The notes below the pieces were generated by a model, which made no database searches, was not told where the DNA came from, and worked only from the letters and a program-made list of their open reading frames with translations. A stretch of DNA of 64,000 nucleotides from Lingula anatina (Eukaryota; Animalia; Brachiopoda): the NCBI GenBank assembly GCA_051362555.1, contig CM120649.1:17808567-17872566 (forward strand). The letters run 5' to 3'. Made by a program: the position numbers and the translations under genes. Shown piece by piece: positions 13,174-50,200 of the stretch (position 1 is the first letter of the stretch; the number at the start of each line of letters is the position of its first letter).

Positions 13174-13460
13174 TCTCAACCACTTGTCAAATGTATGAGG
13201 AGCCAGTCGGTGTCCTGAAAGATTATACAAATCAACACCTTGGTGTTAATTAAGAATAAAAAGCCATGGAGCCTGTTTGACAAAAGAAATTAAGCCGAGC
13301 TTGGTTTTAAAGAAATTACCGATAAATCCGTGTGTTTGAACCCATTAAAAACTATGATCATCCGTAAGTTGTGTTGATTGGGCATTTGTCACTACAAATA
13401 AGAAATAACATATATATCATATCAACAGTTGCTGTTTTTTTACCTTTGTTTTTATAATTT

Positions 13461-13920
13461 TGTTATAGTGAGGAATGACGACAGCAGTTTGGAGCTTTCG
13501 AACGTTTATTCACCGACTCTCTTTTTCACAGAATGTACAAGTTTTTATACACTATTTTCCATTCTCAAATTTCCCATTCTCATATTACAAAACTCTATTC
13601 AATATTTCCTAATTTAGTAATTTAAGTGAAACTTGTTTATGATTTAAAATATTTAAAATATTTTCCGAATTACTCATCTTGGATCCTGTCCAATTCAAGT
13701 ATACATGAGTTCTACACGTGTTAAACACGCGCAAATCGATAGAAAAATTAACCAACTATTTTGGACTCTGAAACGTTCCACCCTTTCCATCTTCGAGAAC
13801 AGTCTCTACACTCGTTGACACTTTAAGAAATTTACTTTGTACTCGATAACTTTCTACACATTTGATTCTGTTTTAATTGTTTTGTAATTGCCGAAAGTGT
13901 ATGTCATTTGCTTTACAACA
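13461..13920 (-). repeat. 3' LTR (460 bp)
   Basis: By eye identical to 20048-20517 except two substitutions and a 10-bp deletion; minus-strand TATAAAA and AATAAA (13510-13505). Confidence 0.97.
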
Positions 13921-14812
13921 TACACCCCTTCTTCAAAAGAATTCGTCCTCGAATTCTAAAACTTTACAACATACGCTCCTTTTTCATTTTTTCGAAAGCA
14001 AAGCAAATACTAAAGAATACAAAATACGTAAATTTTCAAAAAGATTAAATGATAAGGTCACATATATGTCATCAATTTAAATGTTATACGCAAGTTCGTC
14101 AATTTCTGCAAAATGAAATAAAATAATAATGAAAGAAAATAATGATTATCTTCCTTAAATACTTCATTTCTACCACAAAGTCATGCAAAAATATAACTAA
14201 GAAAAGTAATTCTATATAATTAACTTATACATAAAGTTAAAAACACATTCGACATGAAACAAAAAAAAAAAAAAAAATATCACCTGAAGGAAGATAATGT
14301 AATAACTTTTTTTAAGAAAATGCAATTCTTCATTCCGGGGTAATGTCAGTGACTGACTTGTCAAAACATCTCGTCTGTATTTTGTCAGTTTACTATGCCT
14401 TCCATTATGATGTGGCGTGAATCTTGTGATAACTTGTATTACATCGTTTGGATGTAACGTTTACTCATATGAATAAGATCAATCTTCTTTGTTAAAAAGT
14501 TCTTCAGAAACAAAATTGTCTACACTCAACACCGCTGAGCGTGCTGATGCTGCCACAACATTACAGTAAAAATTCATAGAATCATGATTTCAAAAGGTCA
14601 ATGCTCATGGCTTTTTCAGTGTATACTGCATTAACTTAGCCTCTTTTAGAAAAAAGAAAATAAGAGTAGACAGAAAAATAGTAAACCGGTTTACATTTAA
14701 GGTTCAGTTAAGCTGTCTCACTGTTGTCCAAATTATACATTTGACCTCTGTGTACTTTTTTACAACGTGTAAGTGTACTATCTTTTTATTTACCAAGAGA
14801 TGTGTTTCCTTT

Positions 14813-17623
14813 TCAATTTCTACGTTTTCTTCGTCTTCCTTGTAACGTCTTATTGATATGATAATCTCTTTTTAATGCATCTGAAATATTTTCTTCAGGT
14901 TCCCAGGAAGTGTTCTTATAACCCTTCCATTTTACTTTGTAATGTCTCTTTGTGTTTATATTCTTACAACATAACAATTTTTCTACTTCATAATATTCGT
15001 ACGCGTCTTGCTTACTATCCGATGCAAGTTCCGCTTTATCTGTGTCATGAACGTCTCTATCTTGCGTTTCACTGGTTGTTTTATTCCCATTTGATTTGTT
15101 GTCTTGCTCATAATTACTTTCATTCAGCCTTTCGTATTTATTGTAATCTTTAGGGTCATAATACATTTTCAATCTGTTTGCATGAACAGGCGACTTATGT
15201 TCCTTGTGTGTTTTACAATCTCTCAAATAATACGTGCACCCTGTTGATAATATCTTTGTAATATAATATGGTCCTTTGTACTTGGTGTACAATTTAGAAC
15301 TTAATCCTTTAGGTGTCATTGGAGTATATATCCAAACTCTATCACCTACTTTATAACTCGGTTGCTTTGATTTAAGGTCATACCTTGCTTTATACTGTTT
15401 CTGAGCTACTTCCCTATTCTTTGTTGCAATTTCTTTTGCCGTTTTAAGGGCATCTTTCAATTCTTCAATGTACTGAGGTAAATTTTTATTCTCATGATGT
15501 TCAGGGATTAAATCACTATCCAATGGCGTACGCATTTCTCGTCCAAAAACTAAATAATAAGGAGAAAACTTTGTAGACTGTGTACAAGGAGTTGCACGTA
15601 ATGCCATCATTACTCCTGGAAGGATATCAGGCCAATTAGTTTGATCTTTCTCACAGTATGCTCTCAAAGTTTGAGCAATTATTGAATTAGTTCTTTCACA
15701 GGCTGCATTGCTTTGTGGATGCCATGCGCTAGTATGATAGCGCTTGATATGGAATAATTTACACAGCGATTGAATAATTTGAGACAAAAAATTCTTTCCT
15801 CGATCAGAAACGAGATATGACGGACAACCATATCTTGTAAACACTTCTCTGTAAAGAGTCTTGGCGATTTCTTTGGCTTCCTGAGTTTTCAAAGGTATTG
15901 CTTCAGCAAAATTAGAAAAAGAACACGTTACCAACAAAATGTACTTATATCCTTCTTTTGATTTGATTAAGGGACCTAATATATCCATATGCATTCTTTC
16001 AAACACGCCTGCGATGGGTAAAGGATTCAAAGGTGCTGGAGCATCTCTACGCAAATGCTTAACCTTTTGGCACACTTCACATGATTTGACGTACTCCATG
16101 ACGTCTTTATAAAGTGACTTCCAAAAATACTTATTCCTAATGGAGGCAAAAGTTCTATCACAACCTTGATGACCGCCACCTGTCAAGGAATCATGATATG
16201 TATGTAAAACGTCGCTTCTGAGTGTTTCAGGGACAGCTAATTGTTTTATTATTCGCAGCTTCTCTGGCATTCCTCGCGAACGCGGTTGATAAAGGTGATA
16301 CAAAACGTCATCTCTCATCACGTATTGATCTGATTCTGCGATGATTTTACGCGCTTGTTTCAAGTCGTCGGGTAAATCGTTTAGTTCCAGATATCTTATT
16401 ATATCTTGAAATTCAGGACATTCACGTTGGTCTTGTTTTAATTTTTCTTTCTCGTCTACATTTGTAACATCAACAACGTTTATGTCATCACATTGACTTA
16501 AGTGCTGCTCACTTCTCAATTTGCTAGTTTGTTTCGGTAAGTACAGCCTAGCTTGGGTGAAATTTTTATCTTGACACCTGTCAGTATCATCCGCGCTTAA
16601 GTGACTATCGTTGCTAACGGTATCTAAAACATTTACTGGTTCATATTCGCGTCTTGATAGTGCATCAGCTGGGTTTGTTTTTCCAGGTCTGTGTATTATT
16701 TCAAAATCTAAGCCTTGTAATTTTAATGACCATCTGATAAGCCTGCCAGATGTATGTTTCACATTTTGTAGCCACGAAATTGCTTTATTATCTGTATACA
16801 CTTTGAAGTGATTGTTAGACAAATATTGTTCAAATTGCTTTATTCCTTCAATAACTGCTAAACATTCTAATTCGTGAATGGTGTAGTTCTTTTCCGCGTT
16901 GTTCAAAGATCTCCCTCCATACGCAATAACTCTATCATGGTTGTTGTCATTCTTTTGACCTAAAATATAACCTATAGCTGTCGTAGATGCGTCCGTTGTT
17001 AATGTAAACTCGCGCGACATATCTGGATAAGCCAGTATTGGTGGTGACATTAACGCTTCTTTTAATGTTTGAAATGACGCTTCACATTCAGGACTCCATA
17101 AGAATTGTACATCTTTCCTTAAAAGTTTATTTAAGGGATCTGCTATTTTACTGAAGCCTTTTATAAATTTTCTGTAGAAGTTACACAACCCTAAAAAACT
17201 TCTTACATCTTTAACAACTTTTGGTGTTGGAAACGATTTTATGGCTTCAAGATTTTTCTCGTCTGGTCTTATTCCATTTTTATCAATTACATGACCTAAA
17301 TATTTAGCTTTTGGTGTTGCAAACTTACATTTTGATGGTTTTAGTCTAAGGTTTGCAGATCTTAGTTTTTGGAATACTTGATTTAAATGTTTTAAATGAT
17401 CTTCAAACGTCTTACTCATGACCAAAATGTCATCAATGTATATCAGTATTGTTTTCCAATTCATGTCTCTAAAAATGTGACTCATTAAGGCCTGGAAGCT
17501 AACACCAGCGTTACGAAGGCCATACGCTAAACGTAAGAATTGGAAGTGTCCGTGGTGTGTGATGAACGCAGTCTTGTGTTTAGTTTCAGGGTCAAGAGGT
17601 AATTGCCAGTATGCGCCTGCCAT
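14813..17623 (-). CDS. pol: Gypsy Pol remainder: RT, RNase H, integrase, chromodomain
   Basis: RT YIDD; RNase H TTDAS...ELECLA...YTDN; integrase H..GHQG..CEVC, HMD, SDRG, ERTN; GPY motif; C-terminal YEVEKLL...YKVKWKGY..SWEPEENI. Confidence 0.95.
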   Translation of the reverse strand: MAGAYWQLPLDPETKHKTAFITHHGHFQFLRLAYGLRNAGVSFQALMSHIFRDMNWKTILIYIDDILVMSKTFEDHLKHLNQVFQKLRSANLRLKPSKCKFATPKAKYLGHVIDKNGIRPDEKNLEAIKSFPTPKVVKDVRSFLGLCNFYRKFIKGFSKIADPLNKLLRKDVQFLWSPECEASFQTLKEALMSPPILAYPDMSREFTLTTDASTTAIGYILGQKNDNNHDRVIAYGGRSLNNAEKNYTIHELECLAVIEGIKQFEQYLSNNHFKVYTDNKAISWLQNVKHTSGRLIRWSLKLQGLDFEIIHRPGKTNPADALSRREYEPVNVLDTVSNDSHLSADDTDRCQDKNFTQARLYLPKQTSKLRSEQHLSQCDDINVVDVTNVDEKEKLKQDQRECPEFQDIIRYLELNDLPDDLKQARKIIAESDQYVMRDDVLYHLYQPRSRGMPEKLRIIKQLAVPETLRSDVLHTYHDSLTGGGHQGCDRTFASIRNKYFWKSLYKDVMEYVKSCEVCQKVKHLRRDAPAPLNPLPIAGVFERMHMDILGPLIKSKEGYKYILLVTCSFSNFAEAIPLKTQEAKEIAKTLYREVFTRYGCPSYLVSDRGKNFLSQIIQSLCKLFHIKRYHTSAWHPQSNAACERTNSIIAQTLRAYCEKDQTNWPDILPGVMMALRATPCTQSTKFSPYYLVFGREMRTPLDSDLIPEHHENKNLPQYIEELKDALKTAKEIATKNREVAQKQYKARYDLKSKQPSYKVGDRVWIYTPMTPKGLSSKLYTKYKGPYYITKILSTGCTYYLRDCKTHKEHKSPVHANRLKMYYDPKDYNKYERLNESNYEQDNKSNGNKTTSETQDRDVHDTDKAELASDSKQDAYEYYEVEKLLCCKNINTKRHYKVKWKGYKNTSWEPEENISDALKRDYHINKTLQGRRRKRRN

Positions 17624-17666
17624 ATCTAAACTAGAAAAATATCTAGCACCTGATGTACCTATCGTT

Positions 17667-19823
17667 TCAAAAACATCTTCTAAACGTTGGTAGTGGCCAG
17701 TGCATGGGTTTTGTGACTTTGTTCAACTTCCGGTAATCAATCGCGAATCTGTATTCTCCATTTTTCTTTTTTACAAGTACTACTGGACTACTGTACTCGC
17801 TCATGCTTTCTTCGATTATGCCATGTTTTAACATATCGTCTACTTGTTTGACAATTTCATCTTTCAACTTTGGTGACGCACGATAAAATGTTTGTTTAAC
17901 AGGGATATCATTTATTGTGTCAATTCTATGTTGATACATATTTGCTGAACCTAACTCTGATAGATTGGTAGCAAAAACTTCACGATTACGTCCTAACAAA
18001 ATTTTCAACTGTTGTTTCTGATCTTCACTCATGTCTGAATCGGCAAAGTTTATATTTAATTCATCTGCATTCCGCAATGCTTCTTGATCTGATAACCTCT
18101 CACCTTTTTGTGCTGTATCTCCCTTTGACATTTCATTTAAAGCACTGACGCTTGCCAGACTCACTGAACTTGCAACAGCTAATATTGTTCTTTTAGGAAT
18201 AAAAATACTTTCATCGCTAGGGTTCATTATTCTGTAAGCGGATTTATTTTTATCAATGGAAACCAAACATTTTGCTCCGATAAGTTTTTTCTTTGACTCG
18301 AGCTTTCGTACTGGTTCTAGTAAAGCTACTGAAACAGAGGAAGAATGTGATATTTTCACTGGTATTAAGCATTCACATCTTGGTGGAATAAATTCTGATT
18401 TAAAGTTACGCACTAAACCTAATACAGGTGGACTATACAAAGGTAAGAGCAAATTATAATCAGGCAATGCCATGCTATCAGACGATAAATCAATTTTTAC
18501 ATTGTGTTTTCTTAAGAAATCTGTGCCTAATATCAAACCTCTTGGCAATTGACTAAATACGTGGACTTTATGCTTTATGATCACATCACCAAAACAAAGA
18601 GGTAACTCTACTTTTCCTAAAACTTTGATCACAGATCCATCAACAACTGAAACTTCTTTTAAAGATGGTTTTTCGTATGCATTTCGATCTTTCTTTCCTA
18701 GTTTTGATAAAAGAGATTCTGATACACAAGATATGACGGCACCTGTGTCAACCAAAGCATTGACATGTTGTTTGTCGATTTGAATTGATATTAGATTATT
18801 AGCTTGGTAATCGGAAATAATAGAAATTGGCACTTTTTTATCTTCAGTTTTGATATAAAACCTATTCCTCTTTCTTAGTCGTTTGTTTACACGTGTAGCT
18901 TGACAGACTTTCGCTACGTGCCCAATCTTACCACAAAAATAACAACTAAAACTGCGAGCAAAACAATTTGGTCTAAGATGCGTGTACTCACCACATCCTT
19001 GACATCTTGGCCATTTCTTTATCGGTTTGCTCTGTTGAGGATAACTCGAACGTTCAACTGGTGGTAATCTGTGATCTGGGCGTCGCAGATAAATGTTTCG
19101 CTGGAGCATACGTCTTGGGCCGTTGGCGTTGTGCCAGAACTTTTTGGGAGGCGCATAAGGACTCGCTCTTGGGGGTGCCAAGTTTCTTTCATCACTAGTT
19201 AGCTTTGGGTTTTGTACCATGTGGATCGCCGACTGTGCGCTGGTACGTACGGCATCACTGATGGAGTTCTGCAACGCGTCTATTTTCTCCGTTATCATCT
19301 TTATTTCAGTTCGTTGGTTTCTTTTGCTCGGCTGCACCGCATTTTCCGCGATGCGCGCATGGTGCATCAAGGACTCAAAATCAGATGGCTCCCTCTGCAC
19401 TACGAAGGGGCGGATCTCGGGGAGTATCCCGTTTATAATCACCGTAAGGGCCGTTCCCTCATCTAAACGCGCACGTTTGGCGTCGTGGCGCATTGCCGCA
19501 ATGTAGTTCTGCACCGGTTCTTCTGGCAGCTGATGCCGTCTAAAAAATTCTGAAGCTCTCGCCCACGTTTCTCCGTCTCTTAGTTGGTACCTGGCACGGA
19601 ACTCGCGGACGAGCAATTCCCAATTTTTTTGTACTGTAGCTGGCAACAACTCATACCAGTCTATGGCGGATTGCTTGAGCAACAGAGGAAACAAGGCGGT
19701 AATTTGGACTTCTTCTAATTTTTTATACAGTGTATAGTTTTCAAACTGCTTTAGCCACCTTTCGATATCTTCGTTTCCGTTACCAGAAAACTTTTCTGGC
19801 GCCAAAGATAAATCTGAGGACAT
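17667..19823 (-). CDS. gag-pol: Gypsy Gag-protease-RT(N-terminal) ORF, cut by a +1 frameshift
   Basis: Gag capsid-like start PEKFSGNGNEDIERWLKQFE; two CCHC knuckles (CQGCGEYTHLRPNC, CYFCGKIGHVAKVC); aspartic protease LVDTGA; RT start SSPVVLVKKKNGEYRFAIDYRKLN. Confidence 0.93.
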   Translation of the reverse strand: MSSDLSLAPEKFSGNGNEDIERWLKQFENYTLYKKLEEVQITALFPLLLKQSAIDWYELLPATVQKNWELLVREFRARYQLRDGETWARASEFFRRHQLPEEPVQNYIAAMRHDAKRARLDEGTALTVIINGILPEIRPFVVQREPSDFESLMHHARIAENAVQPSKRNQRTEIKMITEKIDALQNSISDAVRTSAQSAIHMVQNPKLTSDERNLAPPRASPYAPPKKFWHNANGPRRMLQRNIYLRRPDHRLPPVERSSYPQQSKPIKKWPRCQGCGEYTHLRPNCFARSFSCYFCGKIGHVAKVCQATRVNKRLRKRNRFYIKTEDKKVPISIISDYQANNLISIQIDKQHVNALVDTGAVISCVSESLLSKLGKKDRNAYEKPSLKEVSVVDGSVIKVLGKVELPLCFGDVIIKHKVHVFSQLPRGLILGTDFLRKHNVKIDLSSDSMALPDYNLLLPLYSPPVLGLVRNFKSEFIPPRCECLIPVKISHSSSVSVALLEPVRKLESKKKLIGAKCLVSIDKNKSAYRIMNPSDESIFIPKRTILAVASSVSLASVSALNEMSKGDTAQKGERLSDQEALRNADELNINFADSDMSEDQKQQLKILLGRNREVFATNLSELGSANMYQHRIDTINDIPVKQTFYRASPKLKDEIVKQVDDMLKHGIIEESMSEYSSPVVLVKKKNGEYRFAIDYRKLNKVTKPMHWPLPTFRRCF

Positions 19824-20047
19824 CTTCGTCTTTTTTCAGTTATTAATAGTTGCTAGGGTAATGACTTTTAGTTATTTTCATTACTCAGCATACTCGGTTT
19901 CCTCTGCGCTGAGACACTGACGATGTTTGCCTCTGGGTGGATGGTGTGAACTCATCGGTGTCTACGCTCCTGCTGCCGTCATCACCATAACTTTATCGCC
20001 GTTCCGCTTGCCTCGGTAGAGCGGGGATCGATTTTTCCTCCACCACT

Positions 20048-20517
20048 TGTTATAGTGAGGAATGACGACAGCAGTTTGGAGCTTTCGAACGTTTATTCAC
20101 CGACTCTCTTTTTCACAGAATGTACAAGTTTTTATACACTATTTTCCATTCTCAAATTTCCCATTCTCATATTACAAAACTCTATTCAATATTTCCTAAT
20201 TTAGTAATTTAAATGAAACTTGTTTATGATTTAAAATATTTAAAATATTTTCCGAATTACTTATCTTGGATCCTGTCCAATTCAAGTATACATGAGTTCT
20301 ACACGTGTTAAACACGCGCAAATCGATAGAAAAATTAACCAATCGGATCCAACTATTTTGGACTCTGAAACGTTCCACCCTTTCCATCTTCGAGAACAGT
20401 CTCTACACTCGTTGACACTTTAAGAAATTTACTTTGTACTCGATAACTTTCTACACATTTGATTCTGTTTTAATTGTTTTGTAATTGCCGAAAGTGTATG
20501 TCATTTGCTTTACAACA
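20048..20517 (-). repeat. 5' LTR (470 bp)
   Basis: Direct repeat of 13461-13920; begins TG, ends CA, followed by the PBS. Confidence 0.97.
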
Positions 20518-33380: not shown

Positions 33381-34919
33381 AAAAGGTATAAAATCAAGGG
33401 AATGGAAATTAAATGTAATGCTTTGGATACCCCCCCCCCCCCCCCCAAAAAAAAAAGATGTTTCGTTTAATTTCTGAATGAATTCTGAATTAATGCTATG
33501 TAAAGGATTTCTTCGGCTGTTTAAAAACTCAGCACAGAAACAGCCTGTTTTAACCAATAGTTTTAACCACAAGTTAATTTGCGCTCCACTTTTTCGGTGT
33601 CCATCGTGTTGCTTTCATCGGGGAAAGCTGAGCTCATTATACATGTAATCTGTGCACGCACGACAGGAATTGCCGTGATAAAACTAACCCCGGCGATGTA
33701 TGTTTTTACCTTGTTGATGTTATGTACAAAAACTATAATTCTACTTAAGTTTCTCTGGGAGGTAATATGCATGCATTGTTTTTAGATCAGGAAGCAGGAG
33801 CACCACGAACGTGTTGACTTCAAAGAATCTATAGGATCACTCCTTGATGCGACTTTTTCTGTATGGCAAAGAAGCTCAAGAGCAGAAGGTCACGCGGTGA
33901 CGGAATCAGGTAGGAGGAGCGCTACTAGCTGACAAAAGTATTCACCCCCAACTTTAATTATTACATCTCTCTTTTCAGTTGATTTTCATTTTGGTATTAT
34001 AATTTATCAACCTTATTGCATAATTATCTTCACTTTCCTCGTGACGAATATCCCGGTAACTCCCTTCGCCACAAAAAGTTTTCATATAATTATTAAACAT
34101 AGCAAAAAATTCCTGTCTACTTTTGTAGTATTATAAACGTATTCATCTCGAAGTTTATTTATATTGTACATGGCGTCAACATATTTGCATAGATGACGTC
34201 AACAGATGTTACAAATATCCTTAGATAATCAATTTTGCAGCAGGGAACTATTTTCTCTGTGTGTGTCATAAATCTAGTTAGCGTAGAATATTAGCAAAAT
34301 GACTTCATATTATTTAAGTAGTTTTGGTCATGGGTAGGCCTTTATTTTATTTTGCCATTCATACTTATTTTATTGGAGGACCGTCGCACCGTCAGATGAC
34401 ATTTGAAACAAAGGGATGAAATGTTAGAGCCTTATGGGTCTATCTTTAAGTTACATGACAAATATCAATATTTTATTATCATTATTTGTCTAAAGGAATT
34501 TGATGATTATCATACCGTGTTCAAACATATTCGCTTGCGCCTAAAATGAGGGACGCCAACATACATGTACATGGATTAATATTTTTACTATTTCAGTCAG
34601 CTTATATAACCATTGTTGTTTTTTATTTAGGTTAATATTTCAGACAAACTTTTATAAACGCTGAGGGTTCAAACGCAAAATGGCCCGTATTCGACACACG
34701 ATCACTTTAAGTCATTTTTTTTAATAAAGCGGGACGATGGATGATTATCATTATGCTAACAAGCAGAGTGTGACACCAACTGTGGTTTCCTATCTGAAAG
34801 CTCAAAGCTGAAGTCACGTCGCTATACAAAGGGATTTCGAATTAACTTGAGTATTCAACGAACAGAAAACGAGCAACCAGCAGTAAAGTCAACGCAGCAG
34901 TAAACAAATACCTTTGTGC

Positions 34920-35200
34920 GTATAGAGAACAGTAAAGGAACTAACCCTCTGCTCAGAGCAGGGAGACCATGGTATACCACTGCCTCTGTGTGCTAGTAAA
35001 GAACAGTAAAAGGAAGCAACATTCAGCCCAGTGCAGGGCGACAGTCGAGATACCAGTGCAGGAAGGCAGCCGTTATACCAGTGCCTCTATGTGCTAGTAG
35101 AGATTAATAAAGGAAGCAAAGCTCGGCTCAGAGCAGGGAGACAGTCGATATACCAGTGCCTCTGTGTGCTAGTAGAGAATAGTAAAGGAAGCAACGGTCG
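34920..35200 (+). repeat. Degenerate tandem repeat of about 75 bp upstream of the Roco ATG
   Basis: agaa.agtaaaggaa.caa....gctcagagcagggagac...tatacca.tgcctctgtgtgctagta repeated about 3.5 times. Confidence 0.75.
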
Positions 35201-35714
35201 GCTGCCTTAATTTCTGTGCTATAAGAGTACAGGAACCAACAGTACAGGAACCCACAAAGCCTAGTACAGGAATAAGGTAACACTTTCATTACCTTTGTGT
35301 GAGTAAAGGGATTATACTAGTGCAGGAATGCTGTAAATATACCGGTATATTTGTGTGCTGGGAGACCACAACCATTGGAAACACAGTCAAGTGGAAGAAA
35401 ATTGGCAAACTTGAACGATTTGCTTTTTAATGATAGCTGCACAAAAACACACTCAGGCTCTGGTCTTCGTGTGATCCACTTACTTTAAGCAAAGGTTGAC
35501 ACCTTCCTATATCATGTTGCTGCTTCACACAATCTGGTTAACTTTCAAGGCAAATCATATCCTTTCCGACAACTTGGAGTGTAGCCTGGTCGTGAAATGC
35601 ACAGTAATTGGTGTATCAAACAGGGCGTTCACCCTTCTTTTAATTCCCGATTGGTAAAATAGTTGCGAATTATCTTTACGCATTTTCAGTTTCACATGTA
35701 CATGTACAATTAAA

Positions 35715-38700
35715 ATGGCTTCATCTAAAGACGATATGTTTGAGACTTTATATTGCCGAGAGTATGAAAACAAAATTCAAGATGGTGATGACGAAATTAT
35801 GACTTTTCCTTTAAGTGACGCAAATGAAAAATTGGATCACCAAGGTGATGCACATCAAACCTTCGATGGCGACCAAGAAAAACTTGACATCCTTATTAAA
35901 CTGGATGAAGATCCCTATTACCAAGGACCAGGCACGGACCAGGCAGAAACTTGGACAGACCTCAAACTTAGAGGGTTAAGACGCAGAATCCCTGAGAGCA
36001 TATCACGTTGTAAAAGCCTTAGGCTACTTGATATTTCCAATAACAGTCAATTGGACAAAGAGGAAATAGTGAAAGTCTGTGGGTTGGAGACCGTGAGAGA
36101 GTTAAACATGTCTAATTCCAGTATAACTACAATGCCGCCATACATAACCATACCCAAGCATTTGACGAAACTTAACTTGTCCCAAAACCAATTAACAGAA
36201 CTCCCGTTGCAGTTATTTAACCTCGTGAAACTGGAGGAGCTTGACCTAAAACACAACAACATAACATTCATTAGACCACAAGTAAAGCAATTTTGCAGCT
36301 TGAAGAAGTTAAACCTCTCCAACAACCCTTTAGGAGAATTCCCTCTCGAAGTGTGTAACATACAGATGCTGGAGTATATTTCCCTGGCGCAAACTGGCAT
36401 TAGAACAGTCCCACAAAATATAAAATTACTTGGAAACTTAAAAGGGTTATGCCTGTCGTCAAATTGTTTAAAAGAATTCCCATTGCCTCTATGTGAACTG
36501 GGGGAATTAGAGACCTTAGATATTTCAAGAAATGTCATCACTACAGTGCCACTTGAATTAAGGCAACATCAGCATTTGAACAAATTTGACCTGTCTCATA
36601 ACAAGTTGGAAGTACTTCCACTGCCAGTGTGTGAGTTGGTCACACTGGAGACACTTAACCTCAGTGGCAACAACATCACTACAGTGCCACCTCAGATATC
36701 ACGACTTAAGATTCTTAATGAATTTAACCTGTCTGAGAACAAGTTTGAAGAATTTCCGTTGCCAGTGTGTGAGTTGGTAAGACTGGAGAGACTTTTCCTT
36801 AAGGGCAACAACATCACTACAGTGCCACCTAAGATATCACAACTTAAGAATCTCAAGGAATTTGATCTGTCTGATACGAAGTTGGAAGAATTCCCGCTAC
36901 CAGTGTGTGAGTTGTTGAGATTGGAGACACTTATACTTTGGACAATCAAAATCACTACAGTGCCACTGCAGATTACACAACTTCAGAATCTGAAGGAATT
37001 TTACCTGTCTGGTAACACGTTGGAAGAATTCCCCCTACCAGTGTGTGAGTTGGTGAGATTGGTGACCCTTGTACTTTTGGCAAATGGAATCACTACAGTG
37101 CCCCCTAAGATTACACAACTTCAGAGTCTTAAGGAATTTTACCTGCCTAGTAACAAGTTGGAAGAATTTCCACTACCAGTGTGTGAGTTGGTGAGACTGG
37201 TGACACTTGACCTCAGTGACAACAACATCACTACAGTGCCACCTCAGATAACACAACTTAAGAATCTGAATTGGTTTGACCTGTCTGCTAACAAGTTGGA
37301 AGAACTCCCATTGCCAGTATGTGAGTTGGTAAGACTGGAGACACTTGTCCTTAAGGACAACAGCATCACAACAGTGCCACCTCAAATGACAGAACTTATA
37401 AATCTGAAAGTATTTGACCTGTCTAATAACAAGTTGGAAGAACTTCCGCTGTCAGTGTGCGAGTTGGTGACACTGGAGGCACTTGACCTCAGTGACAACA
37501 ACATCACTACAATGCCATCTCAGATATCACAACTTAAGAATCTGAAGGTATTTTACCTGTCTAATAACAAGTTGGAAGAACTTCCGCTGTCAGTGTGCGA
37601 GTTGGTGAGACTGGAAACACTTGTTCTTAAGGACAACCACATTTCTACAGTGCCACCTAAGATTACCCAACTTAAGGATCTGAAGAAATTTGATCTGTCT
37701 GATAACAAGTTGAAAGAACTCCCGCTGTCAGTTTGTGAGTTGGTGAGGCTGGAGACACTTATACTTGGGGGAAATCACATCACTACAGTGCCACCTCAGA
37801 TAACAAAACTTGAGGATCTGAAGGTATTTGTCCTGTTTAATAACATCTTGAAAGATCTTCCGTTGTCAGTGTGTGAATTAGTGAGACTGGAGATACTTAG
37901 ACTTTGGGGAAATCACATCACAACAGTGCCCCCTCAGATATCACAACTTAAGAATCTTCAGGTATTTGACCTGTCTAATAACATGTTGGAAGATCTCCCG
38001 CTGCCAGTTTGTGAGTTGGTGAAACTGGAGACACTTAACCTCAGAAGCAACAAGATCACTACAGTGCCCCCGCAGATTACACAACTAAAGAATCTAAAGA
38101 TCTTGGACCTACATGGTAACTGGTTAGATCTCCCGCTGCCAGTTTGTGAGTTGGTGACACTGGAGACACTTGTCCTCTGTGCCAATAAAATGACAACAGT
38201 GCGACCTGATATATCACAACTTAAGTATCTGAAGGAATTGAGACTGTCTAATAACAAGTTGGAAGATCTTCCATTGCCAATGTTTGAGTTGGTGAGACTG
38301 GAGACACTTGATCTCAGTGACAACAAAATCACTACAGTGCCATATCAGATAACACAACTTAAGAATCTGAAGGTATTACACCTTGTATGGAATAAATTAA
38401 TACAGCCACCACAGGAAGTAGCAGACAGAGGAAAAGAAGCCGTTTTTAGATATTTTAATGATCTTATCAGGACCAAAGCTACAACGTCATCAAGACTCCA
38501 GGTGCATATCCTTGGTGAAACATGCGTAGGGAAGACAAGTTTGGTGAAAACTCTGACATCAGGTACCCCTTTCTTAACATCTATGGCAGACAGAACACAT
38601 GTCATGGAGCAGATCGCGTGGTCGCCAAAGGAAGATGTTTTTCTCAACATAAAGGATTTTGGTGGTCATGAAGTCTACAGAGTTGCACATAACTTCTTCA

Positions 38701-41225
38701 TTTCAAAGGAAGCACTCACACTGATAGTGTTTGATCTCCAGGATGTACCTTTGAAATATAAAGCCACAGTCACAAGCTGGATAGATAACGTTTACAGCAG
38801 AGCACCAGATTCAACTATATTGCTTGTAGGTTCGCATGCAGACTGTCTGAGCAATGAGCAGGAGTTGGAAGCCAGAAAGAAAGAGGTTTTGTGTGATCTC
38901 GAATCTCACTTACGCGATAAGGCATCTAAATTAAGAACGAGTCTGGAAGAATTAGAGAAGAGGACTGAATTATTCAAAAACTCATATGCAGAGGCCTTCG
39001 ATGAAAAGATGATGCACATCAAGAGGCTAATAGAAAATCCACCACGTGTTGAGAAAAGTGTTTTTGTCACCAGTTCTAGAACTGGACATGGAGTGGCCAA
39101 GCTTAAGGAGGAGATAATCAGAAGAGCTAAAGTAAAGGAATTGACACTTCCTGAGGCATGGCTGCAGAAAGTGGAGCAAATAGAGAGAGCAAAACAGAAT
39201 GGGCAAGATCCTTTCCTAACTCTGGACACAATGACAAAGAAAACACCTACACAAATGCAGGGAGATGGCGATGCTCAACGTATCGAAGATGTATTGAATT
39301 TCTTACATGCTACAGGTGTTGTTCTTTGGTTCAGAGATAATCCGTTGTTGAAGACCTACGTATTCCACAGACAAGATGTTTTCATTGATATACTAAGAGC
39401 TGTCCTCTGCCACAATATTGATTCAATTCTTGTGTATGATACCGAACCTTTCAACAAGAAGTACAGCAAAAGGAAATTTGAATCAGCAAAGGAAGATGTA
39501 CTGCGAAGAGGTATCGTCAGCAAAACCATGTTGGAGTGTTTATGGTGGCGATTTAACTTTGGAAGACGCGACCTTGAAGCCATGTTAGAGTTGTTAGAGA
39601 ATTTTGAGATTTGCTACCTTGTAAAAGGTGCTGATGAAAACCAATACCATTTCCCATGGCTTCTGAATGAAGATAGACCCAAATGTATTTCCTCAAAATG
39701 GCCATCTGTTCCATCAAAAGAGAAGTTGCAAATTTCGACTGAGATCCATTTTCCAACTGCCTGTCCCCCTGGTCTCTATGAGATTGCAGCAGTGCATCTC
39801 CACGGTTGTTTAGGACATTACAAATCAACACGTCAAGACTGGAAAGATGGTTTTTATGCTGAACTCGACAGCCAGTTCCAAATGTGCTTTGAAAGAAGGC
39901 TCAGTGGAAGGTCACCCAATGGAGTTCTTCGACTTTTCATACGCGGTGAAGATCCCATTCAACTGAAGAAGCACATTCTGGTGATATTTCAGGATCTTGT
40001 AGACCTTGTAGAGAGAGAATGTCCTGGTTCTCCTCGCGATGAATTTGTGGTGTGTCCACACTGTGTACGAGAGGAGAAGAATCCACCAACCCTGTTTGAC
40101 TCCCCTAAGTTTTTACTTAGTGTTCCCCTTGAAGAACCAGCACCTTATCATCCATGTCCTGAGGAAGACCCTAACACTTTGGCCTCAGCAGACTACTTCT
40201 ATCCAGTTACGAAAGGTAAATACAATTATGCTATGATATCATATTCTCAAATTAGGTTGTGCATTGCACTATGGATTAATATATCTATTCATCAACTTGA
40301 GTGAATTATAATCTTTTGATATCAAAGATATTAGAGCAGGCATTCCCCACTTGTGATTATATTATTTAAGTTTTCCAAAGCAATGTTTGTGTATTGGTAA
40401 TCGGTCGTTTCTTTCGTTTAAATCTGAAGACAGCATTCATTTTTCTTTTCTTTTACAGGAAAAATGACAGCTGTGCACTGTACATCCCTTGACAAACACG
40501 CTAACCACACTGTGAAGATCATCCGTAGTACATTTAACGGTCTCTGCAAGATACTCAGTCGACTCGGTAAAACTGGCATATTAACTGAGGAAGAAAAGGC
40601 GGCAATTCTAGAGCCAGATGCAGATGATAGACTTTCAAGTTTCCTTAAAGGCAAGAATGATTCTGCCTTTTTCGTTTTTTGTGGTGCTCTTCACGACAGT
40701 GGACATGCGCAAACGGCTCGGATGTTGAGGTAGGTTTTTGAGAAGGCGTGCAGGTGCTGATTTCACAGTGGTACTTCGGCCCAAGCAAAAAATGGTCTCC
40801 TTTCCCCAAGTGTAAGTTAATATAACCACTGTTGTGATTCTGGCTCAACATATTGCATAATTACTGCCAAAATGCAACATAGATACTTTAAAGGCAGAAA
40901 AAAGAATTGTTCGATTCAAATTGACTCAACTTATTATCTTTAAACGTACCCTATTTTTTCTATAATTCACATCAGGTTACCTGACTTGGCTATGGAGCTA
41001 TCAGACGTCGCCCTCGGTGACGTATTGCAGAGATTGCTGGACCGAAGGGTGATATCAACGAAAGAAAATTACACCGTGCGACGTGAGCCAACCAAAGCAC
41101 TTAAAGTCATAGCCCTACTTAAGAAGTTAAGGGAGGGCAAGCGAGATGACGAGGCAGAGAGCGCCTTCATTGAATTCGGTAAAGCCCTAGATGAAGAAAT
41201 TGCCAAACGGAAAAACACTTATTAG
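35715..41225 (+). CDS. Roco-family protein (MFHAS1-like LRR-Roc-COR) with two C-terminal CARD/death-fold domains, about 1673 aa
   Basis: Exons 35715-40215, 40459-40729, 40976-41225 (GT-AG; phases 1 and 2 compatible). About 35 LRRs of 23 aa; Roc G1 GETCVGKTSL (near 38514), G2 DRT, G3 DFGGH, G4 GSHAD, G5 TSS; COR (LPEAW...FLHATGVVLWF...FPWLL...CPHC). Exons 2 and 3 each show the L...G(I/V).T.EE...I...L..K...AF..F..AL pattern of CARDs. No kinase domain. Confidence 0.9.
36618..38400 (+). repeat. Coding tandem array: 13 x 138-bp (46-aa, two-LRR) units
   Basis: PL(P/S)VCELV codons recur from 36618 to 38271 (1653 nt = 12x138 - 3; one unit has a one-codon deletion). Scaffold DNA is nearly identical between units. 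Confidence 0.95.
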
Positions 41226-47200: not shown

Positions 47201-50200
47201 AAAAATGCAATCAACAAGAATTTTCAAAATACGCAAAAAATATATATAACTTAAAATGGTACAATCAAAGTTAAGTTAAGGTAGGTCAAAGGTCAATTTC
47301 AAGGTCACAGTAAATTGACTTTCTATTCAACTACAATAGCAGTGTAACTTTGGAGATAAAAGGGAAGCAAAATTTGCAAAGTTCAGTTCATGATGATAAG
47401 TAGGTCAAAGGTCAATTTCAAGGTCACAGTAAGATTGCCAGTATATGACTTCCTATTCAAGTTCAATAGTAACTATGGACCTATCTCTGCCAGTTTTGGA
47501 GATAAAAGGGAACCAAAATTTGCAAAGTTCAATTCATGATAAAAAGTAGGTCAAAGGTCAATTTCAAGGTCACATTAAGATTGCCAGTATATGACTTCTT
47601 ATTCAACTTCAATAGTAACTATGGACCTATCTCTGCCAGTTTTGGAGATAAAAGGGAACCAAAATTTGCAAAGTTCAGTTCATGGTGAAAAGTAGCTCAA
47701 AGGTCAATTTCAAGGCCACATTTGGATTGCCAGTATATGACTTCATATTCAAGTTCAATAGAAACTATGGACCTATCTCTGCCAGTTTTGGAGATAAAAG
47801 GGAGGCAAAATTTGCAAAGTTCAGTTCATGGTGAAAAGTAGGTCAAAGGTCAATTTCAAGGTCACAGTAAGATATCCAGTACATGACTTCCTATTCAACT
47901 TCAATAGTAACTATGGACTTATCTCTGCCAGTTTTGGAGATATAAGGGACTAAATGTTATAATTTTGGAGTTGCCATAATGTGCCATAAATTTCCTACGG
48001 AAAAAATTAATTAAAATAAAGAAAAGGTCATTTTGGTAAAAATTCCTGAAATGGGAGGTGCTCTGAAGTTTCAGATGTTCAAATTTGATGAAATAATGTC
48101 ATTTTCGACCACAAGTTGCCTGCTTTGCCTAGCCTTATGTTTTATTTTTCCGGAGTTCAAAATTTATTATCCATTACTGTACTGCACATTTTGCTTTAAC
48201 CACCAAAATGTACTTTTTGATACAGCGTAACTTTGCAGATAAAAGGGAAGCAAAATTTGCAAAGTTCAGTTCATGATGAAAAGTAGGTCAAAGGTCAATT
48301 TCAAGGTCACAGTAAGATTGCCAGTATATGACTTCCTATTCAACTTCAATAGTAACTATGGACCCATCTCTGCCAGTTTTGGAGATAAAAGGGAGGCAAA
48401 ATTTGCAAAGTTCAGTTCATGGTGAAAAGTAGGTCAAAGGTCAATTTCAAGGTCACAGTAAGATATCCAGTACATGACTTCCTATTCAACTTCAATAGTA
48501 ACTATGGACCTATCTCTGCTAGTTTTGGAGATAAAAGGGAAGCAAATTTTCCAAAGTTCAGTTCATGGTGAAAAGTAGGTCAAAGGTCAATTTCAAGGCC
48601 ACATTTAGATTGCCAGTATATGACTTCATATTCAAGTTCAATAGAAACTATCTCTGCTAGTTTTGGAGATAAAAGGGAGGCAAAATTTGCAAAGTTCAGT
48701 TCATGGTGAAAAGTAGGTCAAAGGTCAATTTCAAGGTCACAGTAAGATATCCAGTACATAACTTCCTATTCAACTTCAATAGTAACTATGGACTTATCTC
48801 TGCCAGTTTTGGAGATATAAGGGACTAAATGTTATAATTTTGGAGTTACCATAATGTGCCATAAATTTCCTACGGAAAAAATTAATTAAAATAAAGAAAA
48901 GGTCATTTTGGTAAAAATTCCTGAAATGGGAGGTGCTCTGAAGTTTCAGATGTTCAAATTTGATGAAATAATGTCATTTTCGACCACAAGTTGCCTGCTT
49001 TGCCTAGCCTTATGTTTTATTTTTCCGGAGTTCAAAATTTATTATCCATTACCGTACTGCACATTTTGCTTTAACCACCAAAATGTACTTTTTGATACAG
49101 CGTAACTTTGCAGATAAAAGGGAAGCAAAATTTGCAAAGTTCAGTTCATGATGAAAAGTAGGTCAATAGTCAATTTCAAGGTCACAGTAAGATTGCCAGC
49201 ATATGACTTCCTATTCAAGTTCAATAGTAACTATGGACCTATCTCTGCCAGTTTTGGAGATAAAAGGGAACCAAAATTTGCAAAGTTCAATTCATGATAA
49301 AAAGTAGGTCAAAGGTCAATTTCAAGGTCACATTTAGATTGCCAGTATATGACTTCCTATTCAACTTCAATAGTAACTATGGACCTATCTCTGCCAGGTT
49401 TGGAGTTAAAAGAGAAAGAAATTAGCAGAGTTCAGTTCATGGTGAAAAGTAGGTCAAAGGTCAATTTTAAGGTCACATTTAGATTGCCAGTATATGACTT
49501 CCTATTCAACTTCAATAGTAACTATGGACCTATCTCTGCTAGTTTTGGAGATAAAAGGGAAGCAAAATTTCATAAGTTCAGTTCATGGTGAAAAGTAGGT
49601 CAAAAGTCAATTTTAAGGTCACATTTAGATTGCCAGTATATGACTTCCTATTCAAGTTCAATAGTAACTATGGACCTATCTCTGCCAGTTTTGGAGATAA
49701 AAGGGAAGCAAAATTTGCAAAGTTCAATTTATGGTGAAAAGTAGGTCAAAGGTCAATTTCAAGGTCACAGTAAGATTGCCAGTATATGACTTCCTATTCA
49801 ACTTCAATAGTAACTATGGACCTATCTCTGCCAGTTTTATAGATATAAGGGACTAAATGTTATAATTTCGGAGTTACCTTAATGTGCCATAAATTTCCTA
49901 CAGAAAAAATTAATTAAAATAAAGAAAAGGTCATTTTGGTCAAAATTCTTGAAATGGGAGGTGCTCTGAAGTTCCAGAAGTTCAAATTTGATGAAATAAT
50001 GTGATTTTTGAACACAAGTTGTCTGCTTTGCCAAGCCTTATGTTTTATTTTTCCAGAGTTCAAAATTTATTATCCATTACCGTACTGCACATTTTGCTTT
50101 CACCACCAATATGTACTTTTTGATACAGCGTAACTCGAAAACCGTATGGAATACAAAAAAACGGAGACCACCCCCAGTGTTGGGCTTTACATGCTCTACA

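Follow-up and report, generated by a model that had tools for sequence, protein, structure and literature searches.

The locus examined here lies in a 64-kb stretch of the Lingula anatina genome (that whole stretch is what we call the window) and comprises a gene with three intact exons, whose 1673-aa product has the LRR-Roc-COR-CARD-CARD arrangement of a Roco protein and follows the L. anatina protein XP_013414975.1 (here P0004) through to its final residue. P0004 and XP_013387908.2 (P0005) belong to the L. anatina RefSeq 'MFHAS1 homolog' family, which carries automatic annotation only. An open frame at 35658-40304, with its ATG at 35715, contains every LRR, and exon 1 closes on a phase 1 GT donor at 40216. 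The features of the gene, all on the forward strand, are:

35715..40215, forward: exon 1 coding sequence, with the N-terminal segment, LRR, Roc, COR-A and COR-B (homologous to P0004 as far as the junction)
35955..36617, forward: irregular LRR head, ~aa 81-301 (aa 116-301 share 78% identity with P0004)
36618..38408, forward: 13 tandem 138-bp units, each of 2 x 23-aa LRRs; positively selected columns 14, 16, 17, 19, 35, 37, (39) and 40
37417..37470, forward: 54-bp identical tract, equal to 37555-37608 one unit downstream (p=0.004-0.006, two nulls)
37555..37608, forward: partner copy of the 54-bp tract (sequence identity)
38502..38843, forward: Roc GTPase, aa 930-1043 (Pfam PF08477 E=8e-14; LRRK2 Roc E=1.5e-12)
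39150..39665, forward: COR-A, aa 1146-1317 (PF16095 E=1.4e-10)
39741..40106, forward: probable COR-B, aa 1343-1464 (PF25497 E=0.004, below the Pfam cut-off)
40459..40729, forward: exon 2, first CARD-like domain (PF00619 E=0.053 alone; 93% identical to P0004)
40976..41225, forward: exon 3, with the stop and the second CARD-like domain (PF00619 E=1.3e-4, narrowly below the cut-off; 82/82 identical to P0004)

When aligned with the Roc domain of LRRK2, the Roc motifs are intact, namely a P-loop (GETCVGKT) at 38514, a G3 motif (DFGG) and a G4-like HAD (in GSHAD). Judged by this order of Roc then COR, and by its intact G1, G3 and G4, the gene belongs to the Roco proteins, such that the analogy to the Ectocarpus Roco LRRs drawn in the original prediction has turned out to be apt at the level of Pfam Roc and COR matches. 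The codon at 38652-38654, adjoining G3, gives IKDFGG in the window as against INDFGG in P0004-P0011. The two CARD stretches of P0004 score E=1.1e-7, over the Pfam cut-off, whereas the single CARDs of the window each fall under it; the structure model for exon 3 is poor (pLDDT 58). Inspection by eye revealed no signal or membrane segment in the protein, indicating a cytosolic type, and neither NACHT nor NB-ARC was present among the 16 Pfam families matched, which do include LRRs. As for the 'MFHAS1 homolog' label, the architecture of MFHAS1 is LRR-Roc-COR with nothing further, whereas here two CARD-like exons follow at the C-terminus.

The GT..AG joint of the second intron (40729>40976) is spliced in three RNA reads of run X16; however, 203 of 225 X16 reads are just 90-95% alike and therefore probably derive from a related copy. 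In X10 (~6% of the run examined) two reads match at >=99% identity, so that the evidence for transcription of the window copy itself is thin. Run X19 yielded short pieces, most of them 90-95% alike, and none in the bins for flank or intron; as this would fit absence and a diverged population equally, the run was left out of account.

Elsewhere in the window lie a young LTR retrotransposon of the Ty3/gypsy type (13460-20517, reverse strand), with ~460-bp terminal repeats that are 99-100% identical and with ORFs for protease (17667-19835) and RT/RNaseH/integrase/chromodomain (14813-17722) that overlap in different frames; a satellite-like 146-bp tandem array at 47349-49852 (17 copies, 72% matches); and a 20-bp minisatellite at 824-1153.

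The repeat array

Tandem Repeats Finder reports a 138-bp array at 36536-38377 (13.4 copies, 79% matches), and the predicted 13 units, 138-bp period and intact frame all hold over 36618-38408. Each unit is made up of 46 codons, or two 23-residue LRRs, with a single codon missing from unit 11; pairs of units differ by 18-41 mismatches per 138 bases (13-30%; mean 22%, ~30 bases). All 13 strand motifs quoted in the original prediction are an exact match to columns 14-18. It had listed one strand motif per unit, and variation is indeed concentrated at the x positions; what it overlooked is that every unit contains two LRRs, and that the second strand (columns 35, 37, 39 and 40) is likewise hypervariable, with seven residues at column 40 and six at column 37.

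Across the 12 x columns of LxxLxLxxNx, defined a priori, pN is 0.40, versus 0.17 at 14 other exposed columns (permutation p=3e-4), while scaffold columns have a pN of 0.105 and a pS of 0.325 (dS ~0.43). The notion of a 'frozen' scaffold with unchanging synonymous sites is contradicted by these synonymous values and by the third positions, with just 8 of 46 being invariant; of 11 amino-acid-invariant columns, two use one codon. The scaffold is thus kept at the protein level, but is not frozen at the level of the DNA.

An AlphaFold single-sequence model for aa 256-925 (pLDDT 82) predicts a regular LRR solenoid whose strands fall on columns 12-14 and 35-37 of the unit; the top matches in a fold search with the LRR model are LRR solenoids, and SHOC2, a scaffold protein, is among the nearest solved LRR folds. 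By the established geometry of LRRs, the x residues would sit on the concave side.

Selection on the concave face

The concave-face codons evolve under positive selection. In our own GY-type implementation of a codon model, with the x columns fixed beforehand, the 13 aligned units (13 sequences, 12 x columns) gave omega_x values of 2.03, 2.19 and 2.27 on three trees (p=1.4e-4, 1.9e-5 and 3.9e-6), with omega_scaffold at 0.36-0.38 on the same trees, i.e. purifying selection. M2a fitted better than M1a on all three (p<=1.4e-4), and the sites that it picked, 14, 16, 17, 19, 35, 37, 40 and usually 39, are every one an a priori x column. The diversifying selection that had been supposed for this face, with a per-codon comparison of the units proposed as the check, is thereby borne out.

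Could these codons simply be unconstrained (omega=1), in an array that drifts through unequal crossing-over? Plain pairwise counting yields a dN of 0.57 against a dS of 0.43-0.46, a dN/dS of only ~1.2-1.3, and the sample of 13 sequences and 12 x columns is small. However, omega_x=1 is rejected on all three trees, none of 180 simulations under that null (three sets of 60, on 1, 6 or 46 tree segments; 120 of the total used reshuffled trees) attained the observed LRT or omega, and pN is as low as 0.17 at the other exposed columns. We therefore consider drift to be already largely refuted, and highly improbable.

History of the units

Adjacent units are more alike than under shuffled order (27.5 vs 30.1 differences, p=0.008) which, along with the 54-bp tract, bears out the idea of intragenic duplication or conversion; the tract itself is probably a recent conversion or duplication. 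A unit tree and a test for conversion tracts, as had been proposed, gave a mixed answer: the tree supports the pairs 3+4 (bootstrap 98) and 9+10 (91) and no others to that degree, and the neighbour signal and the one tract stand, but a homoplasy-distance test was significant at just one of four window sizes (p=0.36, 0.29, 0.11 and 0.011).

Assembly from recombining cassettes that recur in blocks fared worse. Against shuffled unit order, the best blocks of two, three and four units are unexceptional (p=0.34, 0.53 and 0.37), and tests of the two blocks actually proposed returned p values of 0.18-0.53. Units 5-6 were said to resemble 7-8, and here 5-7 differ at 18 positions but 6-8 at 28; units 1-4 were said to resemble 7-10, and here 1-7 and 2-8 differ at 19 and 22 but 3-9 and 4-10 at 31 and 32 (mean 30), which is chance level in both cases. 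Nor did blastn or tblastn find any orphan 138-bp donor cassette outside the gene within the 64-kb window. Joints such as 36658>38197 were considered as unit deletions and rejected: they keep the register, and they arise where diverged units are mapped to their best fit.

A related suggestion was that of somatic variation, in which the array would be put together in the manner of the lamprey VLRs from donor cassettes, possibly via AID-like deaminases. AID/APOBEC-like enzymes are indeed described for L. anatina in the available text of PMC5956068, and the genome holds many related LRR units, as seen from the high summed depth at unit 5. In lamprey VLRs the germline gene is incomplete, with flanking donor cassettes, whereas the Lingula gene is complete in the assembly and the window is free of orphan units. 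The units are moreover old, being 13-30% diverged with a dS of 0.43; a deaminase signature is lacking at the x codons, where C>T plus G>A changes make up a share of 0.25 versus 0.34 in the scaffold; and the array pieces of X1 and X2 are identical to the window array, with the proviso that contigs drop rare variants. Among proteins of <825 aa, with the 7983 best word-sharing candidates scored, 58 matches were found, none above 40% identity and none named as Lingula. With the gene complete, the units old and no deaminase bias, somatic assembly is unlikely, and indeed we give it next to no credence. What the repeats themselves suggest is a history of old tandem duplication with occasional local conversion, and not a fresh pool of cassettes.

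Relatives in Lingula and other animals

In a Roc-COR search, eight of nine matches were L. anatina proteins labelled 'MFHAS1 homolog' or uncharacterised, the best being 92% identical. A FastTree phylogeny of 143 Roc-COR rows (short-coverage rows dropped; no identified vertebrate MFHAS1 among them) places the window gene in a Lingula clade with a support of 100 and 28 rows, where the window is joined by 24 named Lingula proteins and 3 further rows. Four Lingula pairs are near-identical (Roc-COR distance 0.004-0.017) and may be haplotigs, which would leave about 20 loci; the family is lineage-specific and numbers about 20-25 members in Lingula. A further Lingula model, P0010, carries a COR-B/CARD module ahead of a whole second LRR-Roc-COR-CARD, either because gene models were fused or because the tandem arrangement is genuine.

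A separate amphioxus clade (10 rows, 8 named Branchiostoma) has homogeneous LRR arrays, with 72-94% self-identity in the named rows, and in those arrays that register cleanly variation is again highest at the x columns; three of four scanned proteins (P0057, P0069 and P0077) end in GT4-conflict, OTU protease or caspase domains. A bivalve relative (P0029, Sinanodonta) has a C-terminal Death domain. Rocos in other clades (P0039, P0042, P0019, P0128 and P0149) have LRR arrays that are 80-96% self-identical.

Two types of array: alleles or paralogues

P0004 is the sister of the window gene in the Roc-COR tree (100/99), with P0005 sister to both (85/92). Each of the 8 units of P0004 has T9 and L36, whereas the 13 of the window mostly have R9 and F36; no unit is held in common, and the closest pair still differs at >=26% of residues. 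Identity between the two proteins is 72% in the N-terminal segment, 78% in the head, 89% in Roc, 93% in COR-A, 96% in COR-B, 93% in exon 2 and 100% in exon 3. A parallel gradient is seen in the DNA of X6, whose contig pieces (depth 66-86) differ from the window, 5' to 3', at 41/348, 72/495, 32/433, 23/565, 26/587 and 6/568 positions (88, 85, 93, 96, 96 and 99% identity); these pieces presumably belong to one haplotype.

Over its 1421 letters, an X4 contig covering 34500-35926 shows 46 differences plus 40 gap letters, making for an upstream flank that is 97% identical, and at 8 listed sites in the 5' coding sequence the entire depth of both X4 and X6 has the other letter, which at four of five amino-acid changes gives the P0004 residue. 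In X1 the depth of the window type (49) and that of the other type (45) together come to about the flank depth (95), and the two types sum to the flank in X4 too; this evidence for allelism is one of contig depth and not of copy number, and none of the contigs runs across the whole locus. The X1 and X2 contig pieces show 0 differences from the window array (both runs come from the same study and are possibly the window's source). Another haplotype fails to align near 34973-35203, with joints at 34652>35092 and 35000>35334. Tandem repeats of 75/100 bp occupy 34973-35203, ~500 bp upstream of the ATG.

Given the P0004-type changes that lie behind this 97% identical flank, the two types are likely to be old alleles that differ in the number and content of their units, in keeping with the high allelic variation raised as a possibility in the original prediction. 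The competing view, that they are recent paralogues (a segmental duplicate with presence/absence variation) in which the array differences reflect birth-and-death between copies and perhaps also ectopic exchange originating in the P0005 lineage, strikes us as rather unlikely, although it has a number of observations on its side. At 0.09, the Roc-COR distance between the window gene and P0004 amounts to 5-25 times the values for the four near-identical Lingula pairs; the family is large; one alternative upstream type aligns in patches only; and on scaffold columns the window units lie nearer to those of P0005 (0.20) than to those of P0004 (0.26; p=0.004, for units that are not independent). Set against this are the summed depths in X1 and X4, the joining within one X4 contig of a window-like flank to P0004-like coding changes, the 99% identity of the 3' pieces of X6 together with the identical exon 3, and the 16% of residues that still separate the closest window and P0005 units. 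As P0005 is the next branch, the F36 array may also be an ancestral retention that does not require exchange between loci; a protein tree of 51 units is mostly unresolved (8 of 48 branches starred).

Discussion

Synthesising these observations, the reading that we favour, with moderate confidence, is that this is a Lingula LRR-Roc-COR-CARD-CARD gene likely to act as a germline-encoded, NLR-like cytosolic immune receptor, with a selected binding face and likely alleles that carry different arrays. In this model, 138-bp units would be gained and lost by unequal crossing-over over long times, x codons would be rewritten by point mutation and selection, and balancing selection would hold old haplotypes with different arrays (13 F36-type versus 8 L36/T9-type units); such selection would also explain the peak of divergence at the LRRs and its decay towards the 3' end. 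By domain logic only, we predict that a ligand on the LRR face might shift the nucleotide or dimer state of Roc-COR, and that the tandem CARDs may then cluster and recruit a CARD caspase or adaptor. CARD-caspase-1-GSDME components have been predicted in Lingula, according to the available text of PMC11508797.

An immune function is what the architecture suggests, and we have also weighed a quite unlikely alternative in which the array was diversified by some other conflict (allorecognition, gamete or selfish-element) or guards a fast-evolving host partner. Positive selection and deep haplotypes do not, after all, name a ligand, and the presence of SHOC2 among the nearest solved folds would sit comfortably with such a role; a cytosolic-type protein with CARD ends argues against it, as do the death, caspase, OTU and GT4-conflict effectors of its relatives, which conform to the counter-invader pattern set out in PMC8195603.

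Brown algae and bacteria are already known to possess hypervariable LRR-Rocos, and CARD-bearing Rocos have been catalogued in animals. Closest to hand is the L. anatina 'MFHAS1 homolog' family itself, which with its LRR-Roc-COR-CARD order and 46-aa double-LRR units includes the same gene or a sister copy, P0004 being unlike the window gene in its 8 units as against 13, with none in common. The brown-algal LRR-ROCO genes of Ectocarpus and kelps resemble it in forming an expanded Roco family of proposed immune receptors with tandem LRRs and positively selected concave-face sites (PMC3341825 and PMC11378527). They differ in that each 24-aa LRR is a 72-nt exon of its own, shuffled and alternatively spliced (same sources), whereas all of the Lingula LRRs lie inside one 4.5-kb exon, in 46-aa units and ahead of a CARD-CARD C-terminus; of the two brown-algal hallmarks, the Lingula gene shows selection at concave-face sites but does not have one exon per LRR. 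The available text of PMC3341825 contains nothing on alleles, conversion or unequal crossover.

The bacterial LRR-AP-GTPase-COR-effector counter-invader proteins (Kaur et al. 2021, PMC8195603) are similar in their fast-evolving N-terminal LRRs, Roc-COR switch, C-terminal effector or adaptor, and several paralogues per genome; the text, in the part available, describes bacteria, and the listed rows of its supplement include some animal APGTPase-COR fusions, another Lingula protein among them but not P0004-P0007. At least 17 ROCOs are reported from Trichoplax, with LRR, CARD and death domains, in a paper (PMC4104024) whose available text has no analysis of array evolution, selection or alleles, and Roco-TIR proteins are described for Aplysia in that of PMC9334734. 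Human MFHAS1/MASL1 is likewise an LRR-Roc-COR protein without a kinase and is reportedly linked to TLR signalling; unlike the Lingula gene it consists of LRR and RocCOR only (PMC6337361), with no CARD, and is a single gene in humans. Roc and Roco are absent from the available text of PMC6321704, PMC2575513 and PMC12373286. No account of positive selection or allelic array replacement in any animal Roco turned up in the literature covered; as that literature does not extend to the survey of Lingula immunity by Gerdol 2018 (PMID 29278680), an earlier description may exist.

Plant NLR alleles and animal NLRs combine sensor repeats, a nucleotide switch and a death-fold output, and undergo intragenic gain and loss of LRRs. 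The Lingula gene has the sensor LRRs and the death-fold output (its single CARDs being just under the Pfam cut-off), but in place of an NB-ARC or NACHT switch it has a Roc GTPase, and the order of domains is reversed.

We also put forward, more tentatively and at somewhat less than even odds, a broader view in which marine invertebrates run a Roco receptor system in parallel to the NLRs, whose LRR sensor and GTPase switch are followed by a death or effector end that varies between groups (CARD-CARD for Lingula, caspase, OTU and GT4 for amphioxus, Death for a bivalve). Homogenised, selected arrays would on this view have arisen independently in at least two phyla, with one Lingula locus maintaining balanced alleles of ancient origin that differ in their entire sensor arrays, much like plant R genes. 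Should the favoured reading hold, animals would have an example of a polymorphic Roco sensor coupled to CARDs, and the locus would be a candidate for heritable resistance to disease in brachiopods, as well as a natural allele series for the discovery of Roco ligands. On the broader view, the long-suspected role of LRRK2/MFHAS1-type proteins as immune sensors would become directly testable in animals.
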